Source: a virus (lineage: Duplodnaviria > Caudoviricetes). From it: a stretch of 58,634 bases of DNA. Position numbers and translations under genes: made by a program. Shown piece after piece: positions 627 to 58,433 of this stretch; within the stretch, counting starts at the first letter, position 1; each line of letters begins with the position of its first letter. A model generated the notes under the pieces. The model saw only the letters and a program-made list of their open reading frames with translations, was not told the origin of the DNA and did no database searches. Location of the stretch: the IMG/VR virus record IMGVR_UViG_3300033552_000007, positions 1 through 58,634 of that record; one strand, given 5' to 3'.

Positions 627-1160
627 ATGATGATACTTTCTATTGCATGGCGCTTTCTTGCTAAATACTGGCCTATTATTTTAGCCATGGTGATACTTGG
701 GTATTGCCTGTATAAATATAACAGCGCTACGGACGAGCGCGACAAAGCAATCAATGAATTAGCGGCTTTTAAGCAAGCAATTGGCATAAAAGTACGTGAA
801 CAAGAGATTGAAAACGTCATTAAGCTGCAAATTGCCAAAACAGAAGTTGTGCAAGCAACGACTACTCACATCAAACAGATCGAGGCCATTAAAAATGATT
901 ATTCAAAACGCAACAAAGTTAATGTTGATACTATCGCTAACCTTCGTGACAGCTTGCGCGCCCAAGTTGCAAGTGATACCTACTCCATGCCCGAAGCTTA
1001 CACCGATACCAAAAGAACTACCGAAGAGTGGCGAAACGACTACGGAACCGTTGTTAAGCAATACGAAACGTTAGTTGATGCGTGTAAGATAACAACTTCT
1101 GATTTTAATCTGTTGCGTGAGTGGGCCGACATTAGCTGCGATCAAGTTGGGTGTGAGTGA
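627..1160 (+). CDS. i-spanin (Rz-like)
   Basis: N-terminal TM segment, coiled-coil body, directly after endolysin, contains an embedded lipoprotein gene. Confidence 0.8.
   Translation: MMILSIAWRFLAKYWPIILAMVILGYCLYKYNSATDERDKAINELAAFKQAIGIKVREQEIENVIKLQIAKTEVVQATTTHIKQIEAIKNDYSKRNKVNVDTIANLRDSLRAQVASDTYSMPEAYTDTKRTTEEWRNDYGTVVKQYETLVDACKITTSDFNLLREWADISCDQVGCE
922..1074 (+). CDS. o-spanin (Rz1-like lipoprotein) embedded in the +1 frame of the i-spanin
   Basis: MLILSLTFVTAC lipobox followed by Pro-rich PTPCPKLTPIP. Confidence 0.8.
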   Translation: MLILSLTFVTACAPKLQVIPTPCPKLTPIPKELPKSGETTTEPLLSNTKR

Positions 1161-2136
1161 TTTTTTGCATTTTATCCGCAAGCTCTTCTATGGTCGGATT
1201 GAAGTAAACGTTTTGCAGTATGCGTAAATCCTTGATACCAACTATTTTGGCTAACTGCATTACGTCATAACCGTTATTGCTTAATCTACTAATAGCCTCA
1301 TGCCTAGTATCGTGCCAGTGAAGATCATCAATTAACGCTTTGCTTTTTGCTTTACGAAACAAGCTATCAATTTGCGATGATCTAAGATTGAACACAAGCA
1401 CTCCATCGCGCGGCAATTCTTCTAAGATTGATTTTGCAACCTGGCTTAATGGCACATCGCGCTTGGTTCCGTTTTTACTCATGGCAATGTGTACGTGTCT
1501 ATCAAAAACGTGTTTCCATAAAAGGTTACTTACTTCACCGGCCCTCATAGCCGTTTCAATTGAGAAAATAAAGGCAGCGCCAACTCTTGAGCTTATATTA
1601 ACTGGCTTACCGTCATAGCCCAAGGCTTCTAATACCCGCTTTATTTCATCACCACTAATTCGCCTTGATCTTGCTTCTGGCGATTTTGGCCTTCTCACTT
1701 CTTTAAATGGATTGTTCTTTAGCCAGCCCCATTCTTTGATTGCTACGTTGCAGGCATGGCTTAATAAATTCCATTCTCGCAATACCGTGCCATCCGATAC
1801 TACTTTAGAGCGCGTATCGCGCCATTTAGCTGCGTCTTTAGCACTCAAGGCCCCAAGCTTTACATTGGCCAGTGGCATTTTATTAGTATTGTTTATCCTT
1901 ATTCGTTCCCACGCTTCACCACGTTTTTTTATACTCTCTTCTTCAAGGTAGCGCGTGAGTAGATCGCTAAAGGTTTTATTCGGCAACTTGCCTAGTACAC
2001 CATCTTCAATATCGGTTTCTATAATCCTCGCCCATGTAGTTGCGGCGGCTTTAGTTAAAAACACCTTGCTTTTACGCACACCTTGCTTGAAAATGAACGC
2101 CCGCCAGCCGTCTTTGTGAGGTTTAATTGAGGCCAT
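1132..2136 (-). CDS. int: Tyrosine recombinase / phage integrase
   Basis: ETAMRAGE (R), SKNG (K), WHDTRH (HxxR), late Tyr in QNVYFNP. Confidence 0.95.
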   Translation of the reverse strand: MASIKPHKDGWRAFIFKQGVRKSKVFLTKAAATTWARIIETDIEDGVLGKLPNKTFSDLLTRYLEEESIKKRGEAWERIRINNTNKMPLANVKLGALSAKDAAKWRDTRSKVVSDGTVLREWNLLSHACNVAIKEWGWLKNNPFKEVRRPKSPEARSRRISGDEIKRVLEALGYDGKPVNISSRVGAAFIFSIETAMRAGEVSNLLWKHVFDRHVHIAMSKNGTKRDVPLSQVAKSILEELPRDGVLVFNLRSSQIDSLFRKAKSKALIDDLHWHDTRHEAISRLSNNGYDVMQLAKIVGIKDLRILQNVYFNPTIEELADKMQKITHTQLDRS

Positions 2137-45270: not shown

Positions 45271-48200
45271 ATGGCTGAAACCAACCAACAGAAAGTTAGC
45301 AGGATTGCGGTTCAAGAAGGTGTTGATCCAGACTTAGCTTTACGAGTGGCAAGCACGGAATCAGGATTTAATAGCAATGCCGTTAGTCCAAAAGGTGCGC
45401 GCGGCTTGATGCAAGTTATGCCAGCTACTTATCAAGAAGTCATGGGGCCAGATTCAGACCCTAATAATGTTGATAACAATGTGACGGCTGGCCTACGTTA
45501 TTTAGCCAAGCAACTAAAAACATTCAAAGGTGATGAAAGATTGAGTTTGGCCGCTTACAATGCAGGCGCCGGTGCGGTTAAGAAATACGGCGGCATACCA
45601 CCATACAAAGAAACTCAAGATTATGTCGCCAAGATCACCGGCGGCAAAGCACGCGCTACACCCGCAAAGCAAGGATATGAAGTAATTGGCTATAGTGATA
45701 TTGATGGCAACGACATACCACTAGAAAATCCCGTCAAAAAATCCGCGCCAGTAGCCGCAAAGAAAGCCGCGCCTTATGAAGTTATCGGCTATGAAGAAAT
45801 TGAAGCGCCAGCGCCAGCCGTTGCGCCGGTTGCGGAATCAGCCAATGCGACTTATGGCGACCGTGCAAAAGACTTGGGCATATCTACCGTTCAAGGCGTG
45901 GTTGATGTTGGACAAGCCGCTGTAGGTTTAGGTGATATTGTCAGTGGTGGACGAATTGGTAAACTGGCAGAGCAAGCCGGCGTAAAGTTTGAAGAAACCG
46001 ATCAAATACTTGAAGGCTTAAAATCAACCGCAGGCCAAGCCGACAAAGCCGCTTTAGATAATGCGCAAGGCTTTACTGATACCGCAAAAACTATTGTACA
46101 AAATCCAAACATTATCCCAAACGCGATTACGCGCACCATCCCTAGTATTTTAGGCGGTAGCGGAATTGCAAATGCTTTAGTTAAGCTAATGCCAAAAATC
46201 GGCGCAATCGCCGCAGGGGCAATCGGTGAAGGCGTTATTGGCGCAGGTAGTCAAGCAGAAGGCATCCGTTCGCAAACAGACGATGGATTAATCACGCCTA
46301 CGCAATCCGCATTATCGGCAGCAACAGGATTATCAACAGCCGTTATTTCAAGATTTAGCGGAAACTTTGCACAAAAGCTTGGCATTAAAGACATTGATAA
46401 TGTTTTAGTGAATGGTAGCGCCGAGCAAGTAGACGAAATAGTTAAAAAGTCACTAGGTCGCAAGTTGGTAGAAGGTGGTTTTACTGAATCTGTATTAGAA
46501 GAAATGCCGCAATCTGGCATTGAACAAATGCTATCTAACGTAGCGCTTGATAAACCAATTATGGAAGGTGTTGCAAAATCCGCCGCAATCGGTGGATTAA
46601 CAGCCGCCCCAATGGGTGCTGGTGCGCAATTAATTCCACAAGCACCAGCAATCCCCCAAACACGCGGCCAACGCATTATTGCTGAACTTAAAGCCCGTCA
46701 ATCTGGCCAGCCAGCAAGCACTGTTATTGCTGATGAAGTAATACCAGCCAGCCCAGCCAACCCTAGCGAATCAATTAACGCAGCCGATTTATTAGAGGAT
46801 GATAATGTCAGCAACACTGAACAAGGAGCCGCTAGTATTTTGGATAGCGGAATCGCTGGAAATGGGCGTGATAACCCAAGCGGAAGCGCAGTTAATGCAG
46901 TTAATGACGTTAATGGAATACGATCACCCGATATTGGACAGACCGTATCAAGCAATCTGCCTACTGGAAATGCCAACAGTGCAAATAGTCCACTAGACAA
47001 TCCAACGCCAGAGCCAAAAGCAACACTGGACGCACAAACTACCGCCTTTATCGAAGGCACTAAGCCAGCTTTACTAATTACCGAAGGCGAGGCATTACCG
47101 CAGAATCTACCAAATGACATTAAAACGGCTGTTATCCCTAATCGTGGCACACTTATTTATCGTGATGATATTAGCTTACAACAAGCGCTTAACGGCAATA
47201 TGGGCGAAGCTTTAGGTTATGGCATTAACGAGAAGCCAGCACAGCCCACAAGCGTTGTAACAGCGCGTGACGCTAACGGCACAGTCATTCAAGACGTTGC
47301 AACCGATGGCCGCCAAAGTGTGATTGATGCGGCAACGAAAGTAGCGGGCAATGGTACGGTTGAAGTTAGGCCGATTGAAGCGGCACTGGCAGAGCGTGAA
47401 GCAGGAGTTAAGGCCGCAGAAACGCCCGTTGGCAATATTGAAACGCCCGTTGGCATTGAAAATATGCCTAATGTGCCTAACATAACTAATAACCCAATAG
47501 TATCAAATACTTATTTAGGAAGTTCTGGCCGCCTAAAAACGCCTAAAATTGCCCAATCTGATTTAACACAACCAGCAACACCTGTTAAACCCAAAAAGCC
47601 AGCCAAGAAAGCAGGCACACTCTTAGCTACATTACGCGATATTGGCGGCATTGCACTTACTGATAAGCGCGATGTTACCGGCGAAGATAAGCGCTTTATT
47701 GGTGGTGGTTACAATCAAATATTCAAGGGCAGCGCCAAACAAACCTTGCGCGGCGCCATTGAAAGCGGCTTGCTTGATGAATTTTTACCTTACAGCATGC
47801 GCTTGTCTGCACAAACCGCAGATAGTGAAGCGTATGATTCAACAGAAGCGTATGATTACTTAGCGGATAAAATTCGCAACGGTACTCGCACGTTATCTTA
47901 TGAAGCCGAGCAAGAGCTTGAGCAAAAACGTTACGATGAAAAAACCGACACACAAGCCGCCGTTGATTTAATTGCCGAAGAATTTAATGAGGATGAAATA
48001 AATGCAGAACTCCAAATCGCAGGGTACAACGAAAGAGAAGCTCAAAGCCTGGCTACAGACTTTGACGCCAGCAACGAGGATTCAAGTGTTGAAAGCGGCA
48101 CTGGAAGCCAAGCAAGCGAAAAAACCGAAAGCTTAACCAAAGATCAGGCAGATGGCTTTGTAAAAGTAGCCGCAGATTCAATTAAAACATTACGCAAGCA

Positions 48201-51200
48201 AGATGTTGAGCGCGTATTGGACGAAACGCCATCTAAGTACAGAAAAGAATTAGCAGCCTACATTACAAAAAACCGTAGTGATTTAGCCGAAGAAGTAGCC
48301 GATATTGAGGCAGAAGCCCCCGCTTTAGAACTTCAAGGCCAAACTAACGCCGAAATTGAAGCCGACATAAAAGCTACACGCGACCGTGAAGTCAAAGCCG
48401 CAGCCGATGAAGCCAAAGCCAAATCCGCAAAAGACGCGGAAGATTTAAAAACCCAGCAAAAGAAAAATGCCAACGAACGCCCGTTTGAGTTTGGCGAAAA
48501 CATCAAAGACGTTAAGCAAGCGGTTAAAGCTGGCAGTGAGGATATGTTCACGCTGGATGAAAAGAAAAAGGATGAACCAGCCGCACCAGTTGATGCCAAA
48601 GTAAAACAGGCGCAAGATGATTTAGACGGAGCATTAAGTGACTTAGGCAGTATTTTTGGCAAGTCTTTACGCAACAATATCACCCCAGAACAAGAGCAAA
48701 AGTTAATACCAGTATTAACACGCGTATTTGATGCCGCCTTTAGACTTGGTTACTATGAATTTAAAGCGGCGGCTAAATTTGTACTTGATACAATTAGGAG
48801 TAAGATAAGTGAAGAGGTTGCGGATATTGTCACGATTGACCAGTTGCAAGGTGCGTATATCAGCATGGCTGGCAAGTACGGCGACCAAGCAACTAAAAAA
48901 CGTGATGTAGTTAATATTGAAAGTATTGAAGAGTTACAGGAGAGCGATAATGTCAATGACAAGCGTAGCAGCGCCAATTTGGAATCAGATAGCGGACAGC
49001 CAGAGCCTACAAACGGCATGGGCGCGCAGAATGTTCAAGATGGACGGAATGAAAATAGCGGAAGCGGAAAACAAAGAGTATCAAACGCTGAAAACGAAAG
49101 TGATGCCCAAGGTAGCAACAGCTTATTTGACAGTCAAACCATTGTTACTGGAGAACGTGGCAATAGCGAAATTTACACAGGAAAATCCCCAACACAAAGC
49201 GGCCTTGCTAGAGATAGTGACAATCGCGGAAGCGGTGACGGTAGCTTCACAGGAACACCGATTGAACCGCCAGCAACAGAAGGACTTAACGGAACTACTC
49301 AAAGCGGATTATTCGCGCTAAGTGCCAAGCCATTACAGGCCGAAGCTGACCGCGTAGAGCAAAATACAACGCTTGATAATATACGTGAAACGTTGCCACT
49401 ACTGCAAGCTGGCCAACAAGAGGACGTATTTAAAGCCGAAACGCGCTTTGCTGAACCTAAAGGGTTCGGCATGTTATTTACCAACGGAACGGGTACAGGT
49501 AAAACCTTTACAGGGTTGGGCGTAGTAAAACGCTTTGTAAATTCTGGTAAGAAAAATGTATTAATCATTGCCCCCAATGACAAAATTATTGAAGATTGGC
49601 AAAACACAGCCAAACTATTCAATATCACGGCTAATCGCTTAGAAACCACAAATGATGCTGGACGCGGTGTAGTCATCACCACTTATTCAAACATGGGTAA
49701 CAACCTAACGCTTGCTGATCGCAATTGGGATTTAATCGTCCATGATGAAGCGCACTACTTGGCGATGGATAAAGACGGTACAAATACTAACGCACTTAAA
49801 ACGTTGCGCGCCATTACCCAGCACCCGCAAGGCGTTTTTACAAGAACAGAAATGCTACACCGAGATTTGCGCGCAAAAATAACCGCGCTGTATGAAGAGA
49901 AAAAAACGCTTACGATTGCCGCCGCAAGTGATGAACGCAATTATCCAAAACTTGAAAAAGTAGAAGCAGAGATTGAAGCGGCCAACCTTAAATGGAGTGC
50001 GGTGAGTGAGGCCGTTAAAGAAAAAGTAAAAGCCAACCAAGGCGAAGGCCGACCACGCGCATTATTCTTATCGGCCACACCGTTCGCGTATGAAAAAACA
50101 GTGGATTGGGCAAACGGCTATTTGTTTGATTATGACGCTGGCAAAGAACAGGATGGAGCAAGCGGTACGGGCAATAGGTCTTATAACACTGGCAGCAACC
50201 GCGATCAGTTTATGATGCAGAACTTCGGTTATCGCATGCGTTACAACAAGCTAACCGAGCCAGACGCCAAAGTAAACCGTGGTTTAATGCAACGCCAATT
50301 TAATACTTCGCTTAAAAAAGCAGGTACTTTATCGGGCCGCATGCTGGACGTTGAAGCCGATTATGACCGTAAATTTGTATTGATTGATTCTGCTATTGGC
50401 CGCCGCATTGATGAAGCTCTTGGATGGTTTAGAGAAAAGCGAGATTCACTAAAAACTAGTGGCTTAGTAAACCCGCGCGCCAACGCTTATAGCGATGTAG
50501 AAAAAATCATTTCTGACCAGTTTGATTACTTGTCACGCCGTTATTTGTTGGAAGCTATTAAAGCCAAAGAAGTGGTTGTGCATGTTAAAGAACACATGGC
50601 GCTTGGCCGCAAAGTGGTTGTATTCCATGACTACAAGAAAGGCGGCGGCTTTAACCCGTTTAATATTTCAGCGCGCTCTATGGGCCAAGATTGGACAACA
50701 AGCGGCGACACCCAAGCCATTAACGAAATAATTGAAGAGTTTAAATCCGAGTTTAAAGATTTAATCAATGCGCCAGATTTTAAATCATCTTCACCTATTG
50801 ACACGTTTAAACAAGCGTTCCCCGGTGTATTGCTATTTAACGGCGATGTACCAACAAAAGTACGCCGCGCCAATGTCGCTAAATTCCAAGACGATGCCAG
50901 CGGCCCACAAGTAATTTTAGTGCAATCAGCCGCAGGCAAAGAAGGCATTAGCTTACACGATACAACGGGCAAGCATGCGCGCGTATTGTTTAACTTAGGC
51001 CAACCAACGCAGCCGACAACTTCTATTCAGCAAGAGGGCCGCATTTATCGTACAGGGCAAGTAACAGACGCCATGTTCAGATACTTAAACACAGGTACAA
51101 ATTGGGAGCGCTGGGCGTTTGCCACAACGATTGCACAACGCGCCAGCGCCGCCGAGAACTTAGCGCTTGGCGAACAAGCGCGCGCATTAAAAGACGCCTT

Positions 51201-54200
51201 TATTAGCGGCTTTGAAGAATCAGACAGTTATCGTGCTGGTATGGAAAACGAAGGCAAGGGCGGTAAAGAACGTGACAAAGCCGCCAATGAAGCCTTAACC
51301 GAGTATGACCGTGCAAAAGCTTTTTACTACGGCACGCAAAAGAAAAACAGCAAGACCAAAGCCCAAGAGGGCGCTGATTACTTTGCCACACCAGAGCCAG
51401 TAGGCTTGAAAATGGTTGAGCTTGCCGACATTCGCCCAGGCGAAAAAGTGTTAGAGCCAAGCGCAGGACACGGCGCAATTGCAAGATGGTTCCCAGAAGG
51501 CGCAGACAAAACCGCGATTGAGCCTAGCAGCTTCTTACGCCCACGTTTGGCTATGGTATTTGATGGCGCTATCAATAGCGGTGATTTTGAAGATTTAAAC
51601 ACAATCAATAAATACGATGCCATTGTTATGAACCCGCCGTTTGGTACGGCTGGCAAGACAGCAATTGACCACATGGCTAAAGCCTCCAAGCACTTGAATG
51701 ACGGTGGCCGCATTGTGGCGCTTATTCCAGTAGGTTCAACCGATAAGAAATTTGATAAATGGTTTTATGAAACTGAAACTCGCCCGTTAAAACCTATTTT
51801 TGAAAAAGACGGCATGCAAGTGTTTGCCGGTGACACTGTAAAAATGGCTGGCTTTGGTAAAGACTATGAAATTAAAGACGTAGTTATTGACGATATTAGA
51901 GGCACGCAATTTTTTAGAACCAAAGGACAGTCAAAAGATAACGGTATAAATGCAGTAGCGCTTAAATCTGTTGATAAAATTGGTAAACGTACCGAAGAGT
52001 TTAGCCCCACAAAAGGCTTTACATTGGTTGCTGATATAAAGTTACCAAGCGTTACATTTGAGCGCGCTGGCACTGCCGTTAATACGCGCATTGTGGTAAT
52101 TGAAAAGTCAGAGAGCGCGCCGCAAATATCAAACCGTGATTACACGGACGTTACTGATATTAACGAATTGTTTGATCGTATGGAAACACTTGAAATTCCA
52201 GCGCGCGCGAAAGCCAAAGAAGCTGATAACGAAACTGACGCGGCCCCAGCACGCACAACCGGAAGCGAGGCTACACGCCAGAACGATCAAGCCGCGCGCG
52301 AACGTGATGCAAAGGCACTAGAAAGCGGTGCGATTGCGCAAGGGGGCGAGGCAGTTACATTTAAAATTGAAGGTGATAAGTTAATAACAAATGCGCCAGC
52401 CCAAACGATAACAACGTCCAAAGGCAAAGAGCTTGAAGGCGTATTTATTACTGATTCAAGTATTGGTTTATCTGCAATTAAAGAGGTAGATAGATTCACA
52501 TACTATGCAAAAGGCAAAGGCGCTGGCTACTTTGTGCGCTTACGCCATGTAGTGCGCCCAACGAGTGATGATGTTTCATTCAGCAACGCCGGCGCCCCCA
52601 CTTTCTACAGCGCATTAACGCGCGCCATTGATGCCATTCAAACGAAGAAAGCCGACCCTGTTATGTGGAAAGGTTTAATTAAAAACCTTGCACAAAAAGG
52701 CGTTAAGCCTGATGAAATTGAATGGACGGGGGTAACTGATTGGCTGGACTTGCAAACAGGCGCCGTGACTAAAGAGCAAGTGTTGGATTACTTGAATAGT
52801 AATGGCGTTGAAGTTAGCGAAACGATGCTTGGGAAAGATACAGGCACGACAGACCAAGACGTTATTGATTTTCAAGGGATTGAATCTACTGAATGGGCAG
52901 ATGCTAGTAATTCACAGCGCGATGAATGGCGTGAAGAGTTCTACAGTCAATCATCAATGTACGCGCCTGCAACCAAATACAGCCAATACACCGTACCAGG
53001 CGGCACGAACTACAAAGAGTTGTTGTTGACGTTGCCAGAAAAAGCGCCACCAAAATCTATTGTTGAATGGACTGAAAGAATTGCTGGTGAATGGAACGCT
53101 GATGCAGATGGTAGACAGTTTGGCATACTTGAAGAAGATAATAATTCTTTCTACGTGTATGAAAAAGATGGTGCATTAGGTAAAAAAGTAAAGAGCCTTG
53201 ATGACGCTAAATTGCAAGTTGAAAGCGCACTTGTAAAAAATAAAACTACCAAATATAAATCATCCCACTTCGATCAAGCCAACATACTAGCCCACGTCCG
53301 TTTTGACGAAAGATTAGATGCAGACGGTAACAAGGTTTTGTTTATTCACGAACTGCAATCGGATTGGTCTAGTGATGGGCGAAAAAAAGGATTTGTACGC
53401 ACATTATCTAATGTTGAAAAGGCGCGTAGTAAAGAGTTATCTAAAAAAATGGATGACTACATTACTGAAAATGGATCGCTTAAAGCCCAGCGCAATCGTT
53501 ATGGATTAAGTGAAACTGAATTATCTGAATGGTCTTTATTAGATATTCAAGACAAAGGAGAAGGCGTACCACGCGCACCATTCGTTGAAAAAACTGACGC
53601 ATACCTAGCTTTAGCCCTTAAACGCATGATGCGCTACGCAGCCGAAAACGGCTTTAATAAGGTGGCTATTATTAACGGGCAACAGGCCGCCGACCTTTAT
53701 GACCTTAGTAAACAGGTTGATAAAATTCGTGCTTTCAAAAGACCAGAAGGCACATACTTTATTACAGCAGATGGCAGAACACTATCTGATGAAATGAAGG
53801 AATCAGAACTTGAAGGCGCTGTTGGTAAAGATTTAGCAACAAAGATTATCAATGGTGATAATAAAAAATCTGACGGCTTTCAAGAATTTAAAGGTGTTGA
53901 CCTAAAAGTAGGCGGAGAGGGCATGCGGTTTTTTTACGATACTCTTGTGCCAAAAGTAGCCAAAGACGTACTCAAGAAAGTGGGCGGTAGTGTTGAAACT
54001 ATTAGCTTGTCTTCTGGAAAAGAAATCTATGCAATTATAAACAAAGTTACTGGTAATGAAATAGGTGGTGGTTACACCTTAAAGCAAGCTCAAGATAAAG
54101 TTAATAACGACCCAGACAATAAGTATGAATATTACAAAGTATCTGGCGGTGAAAACGCACAAACAGGCTTCACCATAACCCCCGATATGCGCAACAAAGT

Positions 54201-57200
54201 AATGCAAGGATTGCCGCTATTCAGCCAAGGCACCGGCACAGGCGGCCTTTTAATAGACGACATAAAAGCCGCCATCGCTAACGACATTTACGGCCAAGAG
54301 GTAGACATTTACCCAACTATGATGGACGCGCCAATATACGTGCAAACGCAGGCATTAAGCGAACGTAAGTTTGGTATTGAGGGCTTCTATGATAAACGTA
54401 CTAACCGAGTTGCATTAATCGCCAGCAATCTAAGCAGCATTAAACGTGCTAAAGAAGTGGCGCGCCATGAGCTAATCGGACATTACGGCATGGAAAACAT
54501 GCTTAACGATGCAGACCCTAAACTATTATCAAAACTGTTAAACCGTGTTTTATTTGCAGAAAAAAGCGGCAATAAACAAATTATTGAGATCGCTCAATAC
54601 GTAGATGAAACACAGCCTAATTTAAGCGAACAACGCCGCGCCAAAGAGATTATCGCGGTAATGGCCGAGCGCAATATTCAAAACAGTATTACTAAGCGCG
54701 TGATTGATGCAGTGCGTTTATTCTTGAAGAAAATAGGCTTTATTAAAAGCGATGTAACAGACGCTAAGATTGCAGGCTTATTGCGTGATGCGCAGGTTTA
54801 CTTGAAAGGCAAAGGTAGAAGCTTAGTTGAACCTACTATGCAGGCCAGTTTTAGCAATAACGCCACCAAAGACATACCAGATGCCATTATCTTAAATCCA
54901 CTTGGCACAGCAAAAAACGATACCGATTATGAGGCTGCAAAAGCAGGGGATGTAGTGGCCGCAACGCGACTTGCTAAAAAATTAATTACTAATGATGTAA
55001 TTAAACAATTGAAAGAGCAGATTAAAAATGCTGATTTAGTTGTTGGCGTTACTTCTATTGAACAAAGCGGAAAAAATGCGTTGCCAGAAGCGGCGGCTAT
55101 TTTAATTGCAGACAAACTGTCTCTAAAATACGATGAAAACTTATTGCAATTAGTGTCGCCCAAACGTACTGGCATGAGTGGGATGGACAGAATATTTAAT
55201 CGCCCTGTATTTGAAGGTGATGTACAACCTAACGCAAGTTATATTTTAGTAGACGATACCATTACACAAGGCGGCACATTTGCTGCGATGACTAATCGTA
55301 TTAATGAAGGCGGAGCAAATGTCATTGCTAATATTGCATTGACAGGCAAAGATTATAGTAGCAAGATTGCAATATCAGACAGCATGCTAGAAAAAGTACG
55401 TAGTCAATTTGGTGATTTAGAAAATGAATTTAGAGCGATTACAAAATACGGATTTGAAGGCCTTACTCATAGCGAAGCACGGTTCGTTACGCTTGGAAAC
55501 GCTCCTGACAAATTCCGAGATAGAATCATTGCTGAAACTAAAAAGGCGGCGAGCAATACAAATACGTCTACTGCTAAAGCAGGACAAGACGTAAGTTTTA
55601 GTAACAATCCAACGCCGCCTACGGGTGGCGTTTTCACGTCACAACAGCCCTTAAATCCTAACTTTGAAATCCCGCAAACAAGCAAGCTAGATAACGTACT
55701 GCGCAGCGTGCAAGACAAGAACATTGACTTGAAGCGCGTGACAGCTAACATCAAGAAAAGCATTGGCGATATTTCAGATAACATCAATGCCTACTTGCAA
55801 GAAGAGCTTTATCACGGACGCGCGGCCAAACGTACACAAGACTTTCTCAATAATGAATTGAACCCATTAATTACAGCCATGCAAACGCGTGGTGTGACCA
55901 TGGCGGACTTTGAGGAATACTTATGGGCCAGACACGCCGAAGAACGCAATATTCAGATCGCTAAAGTCAATCCAAAAATGCCAGACCGCGGCAGTGGTTT
56001 AACGACTAAAGAGGCTAACGACTACCTTAACAGTTTAAGCGCTGGCCAAAAACGCAACTTTGAAGCATTGGCCGCCAGAGTGGACGCCATTACCAAAGGT
56101 TCGCGCCAAGTGTTAGTTGATTACAATTTAGAATCAGCCGGCACAGTGTTATCCATGGAAGGCGCTTATAAAAACTACGTGCCGTTAATGCGTGAAGATA
56201 TGGATATGGGTTTCGGCCAAGGTACTGGCCAAGGCGTTAGCGTTAAAGGTAATAGCAGCAAGCGTGCAACCGGTTCTAATCGTGCCGTGGTGGATATTCT
56301 GGCCAACATCGCCCAGCAACGTGAGCGCAACATTATTCGTGGTGAGAAAAATCGCGTGGCTACGGCCCTTGTTGGCCTTGCCAAAACGAATCCTAATAAA
56401 GACTTCTGGCAAGTTGATGTGCCGCCAACCATTACCGATATTAACAAAGCCACTGGCATGGTTGAGGTGCGCATTGACCCTAATTACAAAAATCGTAATA
56501 ACGTGGTTGTGGCCCGTATTGCCGATAAGAAAGGCAACATTCAAGAACGCGCCGTGGTATTTAGCGAGCGCAACGAGCGCGCCGTTAAGATGGCATTGAA
56601 TCTTAAAAACTTGGATCAAGACCAATTGGGTGTCGTGTTAAGCAATGCCGCGGTAATAACGCGCTGGTTCTCTAGTATTAACACGCAATACAACCCGATG
56701 TTCGGCGTAGTCAATATTATGCGTGATGTACAAGGCGCGCTGCTTAACTTGAGTTCAACGCCATTGAAAGGCATGCAAACTAAGGTATTGGCTGAAACGG
56801 CTAAAACCATTGGGCCGTTGTATGCTGAAATTCGCGCCATTCAGAAAAACGGCAAGTCTACTAATACGGACGTGGCCAGGCTGTATGAGGACTTTCAGCG
56901 CGAAGGCGGCAAAACAGGTTACCAAGATATGTTCCGCAACGCCGAAGAGCGTGGCAAAGCCATATCAAAAACGCTTGATCCTAATTGGTGGCAAACAACC
57001 AAGCTAGGTAAAGTGGTTTCGTTAAACGGCTTATTAGCTACGCCAGAACAATGGTTAATGCAAAAGCCAGTTAAGTTAATCTTTGATTGGCTGTCTGACT
57101 ACAACGAGGCGTTAGAAAACACAGTGCGCCTAGCGACTTACAAAGTTGGTTTGGATAAAGGATTAAGTAAACAACAAGCCGCCAGCGTTGCTAAAAACAT

Positions 57201-58329
57201 CAGTGTAAACTTTAACCGTAAAGGTACAGTTGGCGCGCAAGTAGGTTCGCTATATGCCTTCTTTAATGCGTCCGTGCAAGGTTCGGCCCGTATTGCTGAA
57301 ACGTTGATGGTAAACGATAACGGCAAGCTATCATTAAGCAAAACTGGTAAGAAAATTATTAGCGGTGGCTTATTGCTAGGCGCTATGCAAGCAATCGCCA
57401 TGGCAATGGCTGGCTTTGATGATGACGAACCGCCAGAGTTTGTGCGCGATAGAAACATCATTATCCCGTTATCCGGTGGCAAGTACGTGGCTATTCCTAT
57501 GCCATTAGGTTTCAATGCGATCCCGTCTATTGGACGCATCATGACTGAATGGGTGTTAAGTGGCGGCGAAGATACAGGCGGACGCGTAGTTCACATTCTG
57601 GACGTATTGTTAAACGTGACTAACCCGATTGGTAACGCTGGGCTTTCTATTCAAACGGTTGCACCTACTTTGATTGATCCATTGGTGGCTTTATCAGAAA
57701 ACAAAGACTTCACCGGCAGAAAGATTGCCAAAGAGGACTTTAACTCTAAGAATCCAACACCAGGCTATAGCCGTGCTAAAGATACGGCCAGCCGATTCTC
57801 TACAGGTATTGCGTACTTTATCAATAGCGCAACGGGTGGCAATAAGTACCGTGAAGGCGCCATTAGCCCAACACCAGACCAGATTGATTATTTATTTGGC
57901 CAAGTGACCGGCGGCGTAGGCCGTGAAGGTAGCAAGATAATTGGTGCGTTAGATTCTCTTGCTATTGGCGAAGATATACCCAACTACAAAAAACCGTTAA
58001 TAGGTAAATTTTACGGCAACGCAAAGAATAACGATGCAGAGCGCACCACTTACTATGACAACGTAGTGGAGTTAAATAAACTTGAGCTTGAATATAAAGG
58101 ACGCTTAGAAAGCAAAGACGAGCTAGACGAATTTAAGACGGACAATCCAAAGGTTAAAGCGATTATGCTGGGTAACAATACCGATAAGATTGTGACTAAA
58201 TTAGTCAAGCAACGTAAACAGTTGCAAGCCAGCGGCGCATCATCAGATCGTATCAAACAAATTAATGAATTGATTGCGTTGAAAATGAAGCGATTAAACG
58301 AGGCCGTTAGAAAAATAGAAGCCGAATAA
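45271..58329 (+). CDS. 4352-aa polyvalent (DarB-like) injected protein: SLT transglycosylase, SF2 helicase, N6-adenine MTase, HELQSDW domain, zincin-like peptidase, PRTase, LPD38-like C-terminus
   Basis: ESGF..AVSPKGARGLMQ/AYNAG; GTGTGKT, DEAH, SAT, QQEGRIYR; LEPSAGHG, MNPPF; HELIGH (54466-54483); LVDDTITQGGT. Confidence 0.9.
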   Translation: MAETNQQKVSRIAVQEGVDPDLALRVASTESGFNSNAVSPKGARGLMQVMPATYQEVMGPDSDPNNVDNNVTAGLRYLAKQLKTFKGDERLSLAAYNAGAGAVKKYGGIPPYKETQDYVAKITGGKARATPAKQGYEVIGYSDIDGNDIPLENPVKKSAPVAAKKAAPYEVIGYEEIEAPAPAVAPVAESANATYGDRAKDLGISTVQGVVDVGQAAVGLGDIVSGGRIGKLAEQAGVKFEETDQILEGLKSTAGQADKAALDNAQGFTDTAKTIVQNPNIIPNAITRTIPSILGGSGIANALVKLMPKIGAIAAGAIGEGVIGAGSQAEGIRSQTDDGLITPTQSALSAATGLSTAVISRFSGNFAQKLGIKDIDNVLVNGSAEQVDEIVKKSLGRKLVEGGFTESVLEEMPQSGIEQMLSNVALDKPIMEGVAKSAAIGGLTAAPMGAGAQLIPQAPAIPQTRGQRIIAELKARQSGQPASTVIADEVIPASPANPSESINAADLLEDDNVSNTEQGAASILDSGIAGNGRDNPSGSAVNAVNDVNGIRSPDIGQTVSSNLPTGNANSANSPLDNPTPEPKATLDAQTTAFIEGTKPALLITEGEALPQNLPNDIKTAVIPNRGTLIYRDDISLQQALNGNMGEALGYGINEKPAQPTSVVTARDANGTVIQDVATDGRQSVIDAATKVAGNGTVEVRPIEAALAEREAGVKAAETPVGNIETPVGIENMPNVPNITNNPIVSNTYLGSSGRLKTPKIAQSDLTQPATPVKPKKPAKKAGTLLATLRDIGGIALTDKRDVTGEDKRFIGGGYNQIFKGSAKQTLRGAIESGLLDEFLPYSMRLSAQTADSEAYDSTEAYDYLADKIRNGTRTLSYEAEQELEQKRYDEKTDTQAAVDLIAEEFNEDEINAELQIAGYNEREAQSLATDFDASNEDSSVESGTGSQASEKTESLTKDQADGFVKVAADSIKTLRKQDVERVLDETPSKYRKELAAYITKNRSDLAEEVADIEAEAPALELQGQTNAEIEADIKATRDREVKAAADEAKAKSAKDAEDLKTQQKKNANERPFEFGENIKDVKQAVKAGSEDMFTLDEKKKDEPAAPVDAKVKQAQDDLDGALSDLGSIFGKSLRNNITPEQEQKLIPVLTRVFDAAFRLGYYEFKAAAKFVLDTIRSKISEEVADIVTIDQLQGAYISMAGKYGDQATKKRDVVNIESIEELQESDNVNDKRSSANLESDSGQPEPTNGMGAQNVQDGRNENSGSGKQRVSNAENESDAQGSNSLFDSQTIVTGERGNSEIYTGKSPTQSGLARDSDNRGSGDGSFTGTPIEPPATEGLNGTTQSGLFALSAKPLQAEADRVEQNTTLDNIRETLPLLQAGQQEDVFKAETRFAEPKGFGMLFTNGTGTGKTFTGLGVVKRFVNSGKKNVLIIAPNDKIIEDWQNTAKLFNITANRLETTNDAGRGVVITTYSNMGNNLTLADRNWDLIVHDEAHYLAMDKDGTNTNALKTLRAITQHPQGVFTRTEMLHRDLRAKITALYEEKKTLTIAAASDERNYPKLEKVEAEIEAANLKWSAVSEAVKEKVKANQGEGRPRALFLSATPFAYEKTVDWANGYLFDYDAGKEQDGASGTGNRSYNTGSNRDQFMMQNFGYRMRYNKLTEPDAKVNRGLMQRQFNTSLKKAGTLSGRMLDVEADYDRKFVLIDSAIGRRIDEALGWFREKRDSLKTSGLVNPRANAYSDVEKIISDQFDYLSRRYLLEAIKAKEVVVHVKEHMALGRKVVVFHDYKKGGGFNPFNISARSMGQDWTTSGDTQAINEIIEEFKSEFKDLINAPDFKSSSPIDTFKQAFPGVLLFNGDVPTKVRRANVAKFQDDASGPQVILVQSAAGKEGISLHDTTGKHARVLFNLGQPTQPTTSIQQEGRIYRTGQVTDAMFRYLNTGTNWERWAFATTIAQRASAAENLALGEQARALKDAFISGFEESDSYRAGMENEGKGGKERDKAANEALTEYDRAKAFYYGTQKKNSKTKAQEGADYFATPEPVGLKMVELADIRPGEKVLEPSAGHGAIARWFPEGADKTAIEPSSFLRPRLAMVFDGAINSGDFEDLNTINKYDAIVMNPPFGTAGKTAIDHMAKASKHLNDGGRIVALIPVGSTDKKFDKWFYETETRPLKPIFEKDGMQVFAGDTVKMAGFGKDYEIKDVVIDDIRGTQFFRTKGQSKDNGINAVALKSVDKIGKRTEEFSPTKGFTLVADIKLPSVTFERAGTAVNTRIVVIEKSESAPQISNRDYTDVTDINELFDRMETLEIPARAKAKEADNETDAAPARTTGSEATRQNDQAARERDAKALESGAIAQGGEAVTFKIEGDKLITNAPAQTITTSKGKELEGVFITDSSIGLSAIKEVDRFTYYAKGKGAGYFVRLRHVVRPTSDDVSFSNAGAPTFYSALTRAIDAIQTKKADPVMWKGLIKNLAQKGVKPDEIEWTGVTDWLDLQTGAVTKEQVLDYLNSNGVEVSETMLGKDTGTTDQDVIDFQGIESTEWADASNSQRDEWREEFYSQSSMYAPATKYSQYTVPGGTNYKELLLTLPEKAPPKSIVEWTERIAGEWNADADGRQFGILEEDNNSFYVYEKDGALGKKVKSLDDAKLQVESALVKNKTTKYKSSHFDQANILAHVRFDERLDADGNKVLFIHELQSDWSSDGRKKGFVRTLSNVEKARSKELSKKMDDYITENGSLKAQRNRYGLSETELSEWSLLDIQDKGEGVPRAPFVEKTDAYLALALKRMMRYAAENGFNKVAIINGQQAADLYDLSKQVDKIRAFKRPEGTYFITADGRTLSDEMKESELEGAVGKDLATKIINGDNKKSDGFQEFKGVDLKVGGEGMRFFYDTLVPKVAKDVLKKVGGSVETISLSSGKEIYAIINKVTGNEIGGGYTLKQAQDKVNNDPDNKYEYYKVSGGENAQTGFTITPDMRNKVMQGLPLFSQGTGTGGLLIDDIKAAIANDIYGQEVDIYPTMMDAPIYVQTQALSERKFGIEGFYDKRTNRVALIASNLSSIKRAKEVARHELIGHYGMENMLNDADPKLLSKLLNRVLFAEKSGNKQIIEIAQYVDETQPNLSEQRRAKEIIAVMAERNIQNSITKRVIDAVRLFLKKIGFIKSDVTDAKIAGLLRDAQVYLKGKGRSLVEPTMQASFSNNATKDIPDAIILNPLGTAKNDTDYEAAKAGDVVAATRLAKKLITNDVIKQLKEQIKNADLVVGVTSIEQSGKNALPEAAAILIADKLSLKYDENLLQLVSPKRTGMSGMDRIFNRPVFEGDVQPNASYILVDDTITQGGTFAAMTNRINEGGANVIANIALTGKDYSSKIAISDSMLEKVRSQFGDLENEFRAITKYGFEGLTHSEARFVTLGNAPDKFRDRIIAETKKAASNTNTSTAKAGQDVSFSNNPTPPTGGVFTSQQPLNPNFEIPQTSKLDNVLRSVQDKNIDLKRVTANIKKSIGDISDNINAYLQEELYHGRAAKRTQDFLNNELNPLITAMQTRGVTMADFEEYLWARHAEERNIQIAKVNPKMPDRGSGLTTKEANDYLNSLSAGQKRNFEALAARVDAITKGSRQVLVDYNLESAGTVLSMEGAYKNYVPLMREDMDMGFGQGTGQGVSVKGNSSKRATGSNRAVVDILANIAQQRERNIIRGEKNRVATALVGLAKTNPNKDFWQVDVPPTITDINKATGMVEVRIDPNYKNRNNVVVARIADKKGNIQERAVVFSERNERAVKMALNLKNLDQDQLGVVLSNAAVITRWFSSINTQYNPMFGVVNIMRDVQGALLNLSSTPLKGMQTKVLAETAKTIGPLYAEIRAIQKNGKSTNTDVARLYEDFQREGGKTGYQDMFRNAEERGKAISKTLDPNWWQTTKLGKVVSLNGLLATPEQWLMQKPVKLIFDWLSDYNEALENTVRLATYKVGLDKGLSKQQAASVAKNISVNFNRKGTVGAQVGSLYAFFNASVQGSARIAETLMVNDNGKLSLSKTGKKIISGGLLLGAMQAIAMAMAGFDDDEPPEFVRDRNIIIPLSGGKYVAIPMPLGFNAIPSIGRIMTEWVLSGGEDTGGRVVHILDVLLNVTNPIGNAGLSIQTVAPTLIDPLVALSENKDFTGRKIAKEDFNSKNPTPGYSRAKDTASRFSTGIAYFINSATGGNKYREGAISPTPDQIDYLFGQVTGGVGREGSKIIGALDSLAIGEDIPNYKKPLIGKFYGNAKNNDAERTTYYDNVVELNKLELEYKGRLESKDELDEFKTDNPKVKAIMLGNNTDKIVTKLVKQRKQLQASGASSDRIKQINELIALKMKRLNEAVRKIEAE
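46805..46996 (+). CDS. Nested +1-frame ORF 1 inside the giant gene (63 aa)
   Basis: GAGG 6 nt before the ATG; coincides with an S/G/N-rich linker of the host frame. Confidence 0.5.
   Translation: MSATLNKEPLVFWIAESLEMGVITQAEAQLMQLMTLMEYDHPILDRPYQAICLLEMPTVQIVH
48002..48136 (+). CDS. Nested +1-frame ORF 2 inside the giant gene (44 aa)
   Basis: GAGGAT 7 nt before the ATG; amphipathic KEKLKAWLQTLTPATRIQVLKAALEAK. Confidence 0.5.
   Translation: MQNSKSQGTTKEKLKAWLQTLTPATRIQVLKAALEAKQAKKPKA
48950..49321 (+). CDS. Nested +1-frame ORF 3 inside the giant gene (123 aa)
   Basis: AGGAG 7 nt before the ATG; globular-looking helical sequence; spans the linker before the helicase. Confidence 0.65.
   Translation: MSMTSVAAPIWNQIADSQSLQTAWARRMFKMDGMKIAEAENKEYQTLKTKVMPKVATAYLTVKPLLLENVAIAKFTQENPQHKAALLEIVTIAEAVTVASQEHRLNRQQQKDLTELLKADYSR
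55424..55594 (+). CDS. Nested +1-frame ORF 4 inside the giant gene (56 aa)
   Basis: MNLERLQNTDLKALLIAKHGSLRLETLLTNSEIESLLKLKRRRAIQIRLLLKQDKT; TTGACA upstream, terminator downstream. Confidence 0.5.
   Translation: MNLERLQNTDLKALLIAKHGSLRLETLLTNSEIESLLKLKRRRAIQIRLLLKQDKT
55611..55634 (+). terminator. Intragenic intrinsic-terminator-like hairpin
   Basis: acgccgcc-TACG-ggtggcgt plus ttt (cUACGg tetraloop). Confidence 0.55.
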
Positions 58330-58409: not shown

Positions 58410-58433
58410 AAGCCGCCATTGTGCGGCTTTTTT
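58410..58433 (+). terminator. Intrinsic terminator preceded by boxA-like actttaacaa
   Basis: aagccgc-cattgt-gcggctt plus T-run. Confidence 0.7.

Follow-up and report, generated by a model that had tools for sequence, protein, structure and literature searches.

A small gene probably overprinted on the PRTase-like domain of a giant phage virion protein

Does an enzyme-like domain of a giant phage protein carry, in another reading frame, a small gene of its own? The question is raised by a DNA stretch of 58,634 bp, IMG/VR record IMGVR_UViG_3300033552_000007, which is called here the window (the whole stretch of DNA that was analysed, a complete virus record with direct terminal repeats). Its last and largest gene contains a cassette with a phosphoribosyltransferase-like (PRTase-like) domain, and over the last part of this domain a short open reading frame (ORF), hereafter ORF4, runs in the +1 frame. 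A prediction made from the letters of the window alone had placed there a promoter, a gene and a terminator, all overprinted on coding sequence, and had proposed that the small protein could be an antidote to the domain or an immunity protein. The positions that this original prediction gave for the junctions of the cassette, the TTGACA/CAAGAT site, the ORF and the hairpin were all correct by direct reading. The elements needed first are the following.

45271-58329, + strand: gene of a polyvalent virion protein, 4352 codons (from the ORF list, the translation and Pfam); all features under study lie inside it
54841-55608, + strand: PRTase-like cassette, 256 residues (giant-protein residues 3191-3446), with the motif YILVDDTITQGGT of the loop that binds phosphoribosyl pyrophosphate (PRPP)
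55424-55594, + strand: ORF4, 56 codons, in the +1 frame over the 3' part of the PRTase domain, with ATG at 55424 and TAA at 55592-55594

The comparison with homologues reported below indicates that ORF4 is very probably a real translated gene. That it is also a conserved gene, overprinted on the PRTase-like domain and tied to it, appears likely.

The +1 frame in homologues of the PRTase-like domain

The significance of ORF4 comes from the comparison with homologues, and not from the window alone. Homologous loci were found through the motif DDT[LIV]TQG, which is far from the ORF4 region, 80 of them in viral contigs and 80 in GTDB genomes, the GTDB hosts of the domain being Beta-, Gamma- and Alphaproteobacteria, Verrucomicrobiota and one planctomycete (for example, L092 is from Delftia, L111 from Azotobacter, L091 from Comamonas and L134 from Stenotrophomonas). 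At 70% amino-acid identity, 154 sequences including the window formed 67 clusters, and the 66 clusters other than that of the window correspond to 153 loci. In these 66 clusters not a single stop was present in the +1 frame across cassette residues 194-246 (0 in 3545 codons), against 583 stops in 12768 codons, or 0.046 per codon, across residues 1-193. The open frame was found alike in lineages of 39-48% GC and in lineages of 60-70% GC.

Codon choice in the main (PRTase) frame was compared with the counts expected from each gene's own codon usage. Leu208 was encoded by CTY (CTC or CTT) in 65 of 65 clusters, for 20.1 expected; CTG or TTG at this position, before an invariant Thr, would give a TGA in the +1 frame. 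Arg226 was CGA or AGA in 61 of 63 clusters (13.0 expected), Arg228 in 49 of 60 (12.9 expected), and the hydrophobic residues 225 and 229 had C-ending codons in 61/63 and 58/66 clusters, respectively. Two control arginines, R109 and R117, were CGA or AGA in only 8/66 and 12/66 clusters, with 14.0 expected for each. Read in the +1 frame, the fixed main-frame wobble bases spell L-[TS]-x-S-E-[IL]-E-S-L. At column 230, for example, the main-frame residue can be L, A, I, S, V, P or T, and the +1 residue is constantly Leu.

Three independent read-outs agree on the place where the constraint changes frame. The entropy of the main-frame wobble position is 0.68 bit at residues 223-232, which is under that of position 1. 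In 19 high-GC representatives, GC at main-frame positions 1/2/3 is.74/.47/.76 in the body of the domain,.83/.61/.45 from the motif to the +1 stop, and.67/.56/.75 past that stop; in the stretch from motif to stop, position 1 is above position 3 in 19 of 19, which is the normal GC1/GC2/GC3 profile shifted by one base. Finally, substitutions were counted in 12 independent within-cluster pairs, of 12-29% nucleotide divergence. They fell on main-frame positions 1/2/3 in proportions of 21/14/65% in the body and 28/12/60% at residues 194-221, and of 55/24/22% at residues 222-232 and 45/31/24% at residues 233-246. As judged from these codon data, selection switches to the +1 frame at about residue 222. 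An alternative frame open in diverged homologues, synonymous constraint and substitutions in the +1 codon phase, by which an overprinted gene is recognised, were all found. Together with the relatives described below, in which only the +1 frame survives, they bear out the nested gene of the original prediction.

The tail encoded after the motif also looks more like a protein in the +1 frame. Its helical hydrophobic moment is 0.443, versus 0.324 in the main frame, and is the higher of the two in 52 of 67 clusters; glycine makes up 1.7% of the +1 tail versus 12.6% of the main-frame one, whose translation is a linker rich in G, A, R and D. The gene would occupy, as an overprint, the +1 frame of the final 50-odd codons of the PRTase-like effector domain, and its product would have about 55-75 residues. 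The constrained part is predicted to be the C-terminal half, made of L-[TS]-x-S-E-[IL]-E-S-L-[RK] and then an amphipathic helix, and the first 30 or so codons would mainly have to stay open across conserved PRTase sequence. In ORF4 itself the conserved core, L-T-N-S-E-I-E-S-L, is at 55505-55531 and is followed by a basic amphipathic helix, and the TAA overlaps the V-S codons of DVSFSNN, the right junction of the cassette. Searches with ORF4 peptides gave nothing significant in Pfam, PHROGs, NCBIfam or PADLOC (the best match was UVR, E = 0.1), and scores against the ESM Atlas were 0.78 or lower.

Other ORFs are found in and around the same stretch. Two more +1-frame ORFs of the giant gene, 56192-56599 and 48917-49321 (135 and 134 codons), are long for a density of 0.054 stops per codon; they were set aside as genes, their translations looking like out-of-frame junk. 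On the minus strand, the antisense ORFs 55417-55587 (56 codons) and 55467-55787 (106 codons) overlap the ORF4 stretch. In homologues, CTC-ACC at Leu208-Thr209 puts a stop in the phase-matched antisense frame.

Near relatives of ORF4 were present in contigs X2, X3 and X4, from three other metagenome studies, the possible source run of the window being excluded. Their match to the window is confined to 55470-55601/55602, about 110-130 nt with 14-15 differences, and upstream of 55470 the nucleotide similarity is below 80%. When 11 listed differences are read in the ORF4 frame, 7 are at third positions, 6 of those being synonymous; read in the giant frame, the same 11 give 2 stops (R226 CGA>TGA and E232 GAA>TAA), 7 missense and 2 synonymous changes. 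Another 30 letters, which match loosely, read T-x-L-K-A-L-L in the ORF4 frame through synonymous changes, and the giant frame loses there its invariant L-T. Depth is 3-5 in these contigs, and identical differences recur in the three runs. Related contigs leave parts of 54862-55450 uncovered. For 53500-57000 of the window, the runs listed were nine DNA runs, one of them the possible source, and no RNA run. Downstream of ORF4 all three have AAACCACC-TTCG-GGTGGTTTTTT, a textbook terminator. From these contigs, ORF4 is in near relatives the sole intact frame and the last gene ahead of a predicted terminator.

The small gene is located at the coding end of the PRTase-like domain in every one of the 67 clusters. 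In 52 of them it is fully nested, because the PRTase frame is fused to further domains and runs on for at least 100 codons. In 13 it overlaps partly and lies downstream, because the PRTase frame ends there, 10-26 codons past R226; the +1 ORF overruns that stop in all 13. The remaining 2 are intermediate. Moraxella phage Mcat8 has the unfused arrangement, and the GenBank coding sequence AKI27356.1 is the tail of its small ORF. Among the aligned loci, then, the small gene belongs to the PRTase-like domain and not to this particular phage: it is predicted wherever the domain is. These arrangements suggest, as the likely history, a unit of PRTase gene, overlapping small gene and terminator, which read-through joined to downstream modules on repeated occasions and in which the small gene persisted as an overprint.

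Free-standing forms exist as well. A profile made of 58 small-ORF peptides retrieved 187 database proteins of 29-137 amino acids, all hypothetical and none with a Pfam domain. Proteins P0167 and P0276 have two copies of the motif and no PRTase-derived part; no viral locus was found for P0167. In P0245 and P0277 the motif is at the C-terminal end of larger proteins, and the single relative of P0245 (L164) is without the motif and has unrelated neighbour genes. At locus L058 (3542-3943), a +1 ORF of 134 codons contains three copies of L-T-P-x-E-I-E-x-L, and its main frame a matching triplicated P-D-x-[LV]-R-D-R-I-L. The triplication in both frames means that the overprinted segment was tandemly duplicated. 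Second matches to the family profile, away from the PRTase 3' end, were noted in L163 (1726-1857) and in L100 (302-457, minus strand), and may be extra copies or a second PRTase module.

Several observations weigh against ORF4 as a gene. Alone in the window it is unremarkable, the giant gene holding 11 +1-frame ORFs of at least 56 codons, 8 of them with ATG. Pairwise BLOSUM scores over the 22 codons after the motif are 20.2 in the +1 frame versus 20.8 in the main frame, which is the higher one in 224 of 378 pairs; as the two frames are alike in this respect, what is conserved in the tail would be its helical character and not its sequence. The N-terminal half, in high-GC lineages, is rich in S, T and P and looks like a by-product of the PRTase frame. 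Six-frame matches to a hidden Markov model of the family (161/165) are not independent evidence, because part of this model is the +1 reading of conserved PRTase codons. The clusters share descent, and shuffle statistics overstate their independence, a concern that is eased because synonymous sites should be saturated below 70% amino-acid identity. Lastly, 15 of 78 clusters are without a start codon near column 190, where the start is proposed below, and Shine-Dalgarno (SD) enrichment before the conserved start is absent (mean longest match 2.76, for 2.86 expected; matches of at least 4 nt 15% versus 21%).

Start codon, promoter-like site and hairpin

If ORF4 is translated, where does translation begin? 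In 39 of 78 clusters the His/Tyr190-Gly191 codons themselves form an ATG, and in 10 of 78 a TTG or GTG. In other clusters an ATG is found within -2 to +3 codons of column 190 (8/78), or another start codon (6/78). His/Tyr190 has a T-ending codon in 39 of 49 clusters, for 23.3 expected. Wobble A/T is enriched 1.44-fold in the 11 codons that precede the conserved start, versus 1.02-1.18-fold elsewhere, which fits an unstructured initiation region. In the window, the column-190 start is closed by a TAG, and the ATG of ORF4 is five codons downstream, at 55424. Loci L036 and L118 are like the window, with a stop after the column-190 position and a new ATG right behind. The ATG of ORF4 is preceded by the following element.

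55411-55416, + strand: GGTGAT, possible ribosome-binding site of ORF4, 7 nt before the ATG (direct reading)

This hexamer is complementary to the 3' end of 16S rRNA, the anti-SD sequence.

A programmed +1 frameshift near the end of the PRTase domain offers another way of reaching this frame; ORF4 would then be a recoded, alternative C-terminal helix of a shorter polyprotein, stopping at the junction. Such a mechanism would agree with a constrained +1 part that begins only at about residue 222, with the clusters that have no nearby start codon and with the absence of SD enrichment, as well as with a +1 stop at or near the domain junction and with the C-terminal motif of P0245 and P0277. However, the +1 frame is open from residue 194 in every cluster, 28 codons ahead of the constrained part, and a shift near residues 215-222 needs none of this. 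The T-ending His/Tyr190 codons that make the ATG are enriched, and the wobble bases ahead of this ATG are A/T-rich; the codon alignments show no conserved slippery or hungry-codon site. Near relatives have two stops in the giant frame, with ORF4 intact and still conserved upstream, and the free-standing proteins with two motifs have no PRTase part at all. An in-frame fusion of PRTase and motif was not found among 7999 longer candidates scored, which is weak evidence. Frameshifting appears improbable, and we consider it likely that ORF4 is translated from its own start codon. What favours independent initiation is that the frame stays open from residue 194 onwards in each cluster, that an ATG is found more often than expected and that the family has free-standing members.

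Upstream of the start, the original prediction had pointed to a promoter written in the codons of the PRTase domain.

55339-55367, + strand: promoter-like site, TTGACA (55339-55344, the Leu167-Thr168 codons), 17 nt, CAAGAT (55362-55367); direct reading

In the window, a consensus scan gave 21 promoter-like sites versus 23.6 +/- 4.7 in shuffles, and listed neither this site nor the hairpin described below; the pattern TTGACA-N16-18-nAnnnT occurs 5 times in the window for 7.3 +/- 2.7 expected. The synonymous sites of TTGAC, for which a check in homologues had been suggested, are not freely varying. Leu167 is TTG in 56 of 65 clusters (9.8 expected) and TTR in 61 of 65 (16.6 expected), and TTGAC is kept even in phages of 60-70% GC. 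No coding reason for the T of Leu167 was found in the +1 frame or in antisense. The -10 part is less clear: the -35 matches at 6/6 positions in the window, and the -10, at 17 nt, matches at 3/6 in the window and at 2-5/6 in homologues, its A2 and T6 following from amino-acid conservation. Compared with synonymous recoding, the best TATAAT match reaches 213 versus 175.3 +/- 4.3, and the excess of TATAAT-likeness peaks exactly at a spacer of 17 (z = 8.8), with several other offsets at z = 4-6. The conservation of TTG and the preferred spacing speak for the promoter that had been claimed, and the poor -10 against it; the chances that an internal promoter lies at TTGACA seem to us about even. The T of Leu167 is without effect on stops in any overlapping frame, and a -35 element is the sole explanation that was found for it; the rare TTG as a programmed translational pause, about 70 nt ahead of the internal start, is a possibility.

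The third element lies just past the right junction.

55611-55634, + strand: GC-rich hairpin of 9 pairs with a UACG loop, ending in UUUU (AACGCCGCC-UACG-GGUGGCGUU at 55611-55632, then UU, followed by CACG)

With -17.4 kcal/mol and z = -3.81, this hairpin stands out even in the single sequence, only 1 of 200 shuffles being as stable; it encodes P-T-P-P-T-G-G-V-F in the giant frame. An intrinsic terminator has at least about 5 U after the stem. The tail in the window is UUUU-CACG, in which two U are paired, and it fails the scan, which recorded 24 terminator-like sites in all versus 20.5 +/- 4.9 in shuffles. In relatives the terminator that had been predicted fares better. Besides the canonical form of the near relatives, Mcat8 has a scan-positive terminator 52 nt after the small ORF and before the next head gene (L001 6848-6865); its location inside the head-gene block implies late transcription by read-through or antitermination. 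In 8 of 67 clusters, for about 0.6 expected, a strict hairpin followed by a T-run begins at most 100 nt past the +1 stop. Seven of the 8 start 19-29 nt past this stop and 6 are inside continuing giant ORFs. The hairpins of these clusters encode different amino acids (APPSAGL, ASENGGF, TRPQTGF), with compensatory changes in 4 of 9 stem pairs. The copy in the window has a short T-run; that it acts as a terminator in this phage is conceivable, with the balance slightly on the negative side.

A linker P-P-[ST]-G-G-[VL]-[SF] recurs past the PRTase domain in unrelated giant proteins (P0014, P0018, P0041, P0046). The corresponding DNA (55609-55641 in the window, 3734-3757 in L036) is a GC hairpin, CCNCCN...GGNGG, then T-rich codons, and the hairpin structure is kept even where the amino acids differ.

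Could these elements be a relic? ORF4, with a former promoter and the hairpin, may have been carried along as a linker after the PRTase domain was fused, and be silent in this phage. The unfused arrangement in 13 of 67 clusters, in Mcat8 and in the near relatives would represent the ancestral state, and in the window the weakened T-run that fails the terminator scan, the -10 with only 3/6 matches and the ancestral start position closed by TAG would all be signs of disuse. A relic would decay, however, because the density of +1 stops elsewhere is 0.046 per codon, and the 52 nested clusters are without any +1 stop in the span, their wobble bases still being fixed. Moreover, the lost start has a replacement ATG right behind the TAG, in the window as in L036 and L118. 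We regard a silent relic as distinctly improbable.

It might also be supposed that the wobble bases serve a nucleic acid function, as an RNA structure, a protein-binding site or a recombination site, the open +1 frame being a side effect. A stable hairpin is found just downstream, the junction nucleotides are similar in relatives that do not translate them in the giant frame, and the TTG of Leu167 is conserved without a +1 coding reason. On the other hand, variation sits on the wobble positions of the +1 frame (55% at main-frame position 1), the GC1/GC2/GC3 profile is that of a coding frame in 19/19 high-GC representatives, the amino-acid motif is kept through differing codons (for example TCN for Ser, TTG or CTG for Leu), and it is repeated in frame in L058, P0167 and P0276. 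This makes a purely nucleic acid constraint very improbable. A chance coincidence of ORF, TTGACA and hairpin in a long AT-rich gene, with nothing encoded, could appeal to the fact that in the window only the stability of the hairpin and the triple SFSN described below exceed expectation, but it is contradicted by all comparative results and its probability is negligible.

The cassette, its junctions and the giant gene

At E <= 1e-3 the cassette has matches in 1663 representative proteins, of which 217 reach E <= 1e-30. Most homologues are part of large proteins (2000-6000 residues), where their position varies, and some, 234-300 residues long, are solo proteins; the match covers approximately residues 7-245 of the 256. 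The PRPP-binding loop, with four hydrophobic and two acidic residues and then a small-residue loop with T/S-G-x-T, is recognised in YILVDDTITQGGT. A profile of 20 members (A1) matched the adenine PRTase structures 6fsp and 5zgo at E = 5e-5, in the PRPP loop only. The NCBIfam APRT match was at 1.5e-4, the APRT and OPRT models giving 1.5e-4 to 5e-4, far under their cut-offs, and the other weak PRTase-type matches in NCBIfam and PADLOC, below family thresholds too, were XopC (2e-6), ShosT (3.7e-5) and PsyrT (7.9e-5). Pfam Pribosyltran did not match the copy of the window even at E <= 1, and matched the homologues P0002 and P0003 at about 1e-5, just under its cut-off. Only 3 isolated phage records have the domain; in one of them, Mcat8, it is fused to a MuF domain, directly after the portal gene. 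By its sequence and by the description in the main text of Iyer, Burroughs, Anand, de Souza and Aravind 2017 (PMC5512222), the cassette is the PRTase domain of polyvalent proteins reported there.

The borders of the cassette, and a related site upstream, are as follows.

54841-54861, + strand: left junction, QASFSNN (direct reading, regular expression on the translation)
55588-55608, + strand: right junction, DVSFSNN (direct reading), with the ORF4 stop TAA (55592-55594) within
52567-52587, + strand: first copy of the junction motif, DDVSFSN, giant-protein residues 2433-2439 (SFSN at residue 2436, nt 52576)

The giant protein contains SFSN at three places, each a plausible domain border, and this triple occurrence stands out in the single sequence. 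In homologues a short motif flanks the PRTase domain on both sides, mostly x-F-S-R, with variants such as L-L-S-Q, F-S-P, Y-S-P-T-R and S-V-S-G; in general terms it is [FY]S with R, P, Q or N as the next residue. Exact SFSN as a universal junction was rejected, [ST]F[ST]N being present in only 6 of 153 proteins, that of the window included. The motif tends to match at both ends within one protein and to differ between proteins (homologues P0004-P0051): 17 of 123 proteins share 4-mers between their own two flanks, versus 6.5 +/- 2.5 for permuted partners. A PRTase cassette with matching junctions, as originally described, is upheld by this result and by the extent of the domain. A zincin peptidase adjoining the cassette was also considered and rejected, the motif being HExxxH and not HExxH.

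Related contigs lose their similarity to the window at the junctions, with a right-hand limit at 55601/55602. At the left junction, one related metagenome contig reads E-P-D-I-Q-M-S-F-S-N-N (loose end at 54830), and one related contig joins F-S-N-N to 55657, without the 33 nt that code for the hairpin. In several lineages the T-rich codons of the junction motif (F-S-V-S) are the T-run of the hairpin. For the junction motif three readings are conceivable: a site processed by a co-evolving protease, a recombination joint, or the remnant of a terminator.

The remaining features of the giant protein and of the phage are listed here.

Giant-protein residues 13-116: SLT domain (Pfam, E = 1.9e-25)
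Giant-protein residues 1393-1981: ResIII/SNF2 helicase domain (Pfam ResIII, E = 7.1e-13)
Giant-protein residues 2108-2150: weak match to a methyltransferase (MTase) (Pfam)
Giant-protein residues 4052-4242: LPD38, "large polyvalent protein associated domain 38" (Pfam, E = 1e-39)
1132-2136, minus strand: integrase gene (PHROG phrog_1 integrase, E = 7.7e-54)

A single giant phage polypeptide thus joins unrelated enzyme, effector and LPD domains, and the product of 45271-58329 is a polyvalent virion protein in the sense given to this term in the main text of Iyer et al. 2017 (PMC5512222). The same phage encodes RecE- and RecT-like proteins, a portal protein and a major head protein; from these and the integrase, it is a temperate tailed phage. 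Blastn of the window against phages gave no match, and exact-peptide scans of viral, genome and metagenome contigs found no close relative with DNA. A scan-positive terminator, AAGCCGC-CATTGT-GCGGCTT then TTTTAT, is at 58410-58429, 81 nt past the giant gene, and marks the end of the late operon.

Possible function and comparison with known systems

In defence systems, the PRTase toxins ShosT and PsyrT each have a partner that neutralises them. The logic suggested by the present arrangement is that of a toxin domain with a small immunity gene behind it: the small protein would bind and restrain, or otherwise regulate, the PRTase-like domain in the producing cell, and the domain delivered with the virion would then act without the small protein in the newly infected cell. 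The position expected of an immunity gene, overlapping or directly after the coding end of the domain, was found in 67 of 67 clusters. Because of this position and of the PRTase-toxin precedent, a partner or antidote role is taken as the most likely one. By this analogy, the small protein could tentatively be seen as an antidote, immunity protein or regulator of the PRTase-like domain, in the producing or lysogenic cell, though our confidence in it is limited; a packaging or assembly helper and an unrelated regulator are other candidate roles. The presence of an integrase makes a lysogenic state plausible.

The original prediction can be carried further, to a self-contained effector-antidote cassette, in which the enzyme domain, promoter, nested antidote gene and terminator would be contained in about 770 nt, able to enter any polyvalent virion protein by in-frame splicing at short junction motifs. 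Only the small protein would be made from the internal promoter in a lysogen, and the host would thereby be shielded when superinfecting relatives inject the same domain; in the lytic cycle, the small protein would keep the new giant protein harmless until packaged, and late transcription would have to read through the internal terminator. We regard this complete scheme as unlikely.

What would a second gene in this place mean? Polyvalent proteins are read as strings of domains in one frame, and in at least one common domain a further conserved gene is probably written in a different frame. ORFs that lie within longer genes are dropped by standard pipelines, and the small gene has been called only where the PRTase frame ends or a contig breaks. 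The finding gives a handle on function, since expression of the PRTase-like domain together with its built-in partner can be compared with expression of the domain alone. It also suggests one way in which giant proteins grow, a two-gene unit with its terminator being swallowed by read-through and the inner gene surviving as an overprint. If the promoter and the terminator were functional, this would be a rare complete transcription unit within coding sequence, and a built-in immunity mechanism for injected phage effectors.

Among known nested genes, Rz1 inside Rz of phage lambda is a small +1-frame gene wholly contained in another, the two products cooperating. ORF4 is likewise a small +1-frame gene wholly inside another gene. 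It differs from Rz1 in having neither lipobox nor signal sequence, and in being tied to a mobile domain that moves between many host proteins, where Rz1/Rz is a fixed gene. The partners in ShosTA and PsyrTA are large DprA-like proteins. The likeness of the cassette to the toxins of these systems is a weak PRPP-loop similarity (ShosT 3.7e-5, PsyrT 7.9e-5) over about 40-140 residues and with a low score; they are host systems with large partners, unlike the 56-residue helical peptide of a phage module predicted here.

With the PRTase domain whose role is called "enigmatic" in the main text of Iyer et al. 2017 (PMC5512222), the cassette shares the DD PRPP motif and a location in a giant virion protein together with SLT, SNF2-type helicase, MTase and LPD38 domains; MuF fusions and solo proteins with the domain, as also found here, are described there too. 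A second reading frame over its 3' end is no part of that description: in the main text of PMC5512222 the words "frameshift", "overlapping" and "linker" do not occur. Small ORFs are reported in the text of Jamet et al. 2017 (PMC5576092) to follow MuF toxin genes more often than they follow short MuF genes, and these small ORFs are proposed to be immunity genes; "phosphoribosyl" and "PRTase" do not occur in that text. As with the MuF toxins of that report (PMC5576092), there is a virion carrier (MuF in Mcat8, a polyvalent protein here), an enzyme domain, and a small ORF at once after it. Unlike with them, the small ORF overlaps the coding sequence of the domain by more than 30 codons and in most cases is enclosed completely by a gene with about 900 further codons ahead. 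A further difference is its single motif, conserved in all lineages, where immunity proteins tend to be diverse. A full-text literature search pairing polyvalent proteins with overlapping genes found no report, and neither did the main texts of these two papers show one. Overlapping genes and toxin-immunity pairs are already known; what would be new is that a conserved overprint travels with a mobile effector domain into numerous giant proteins.

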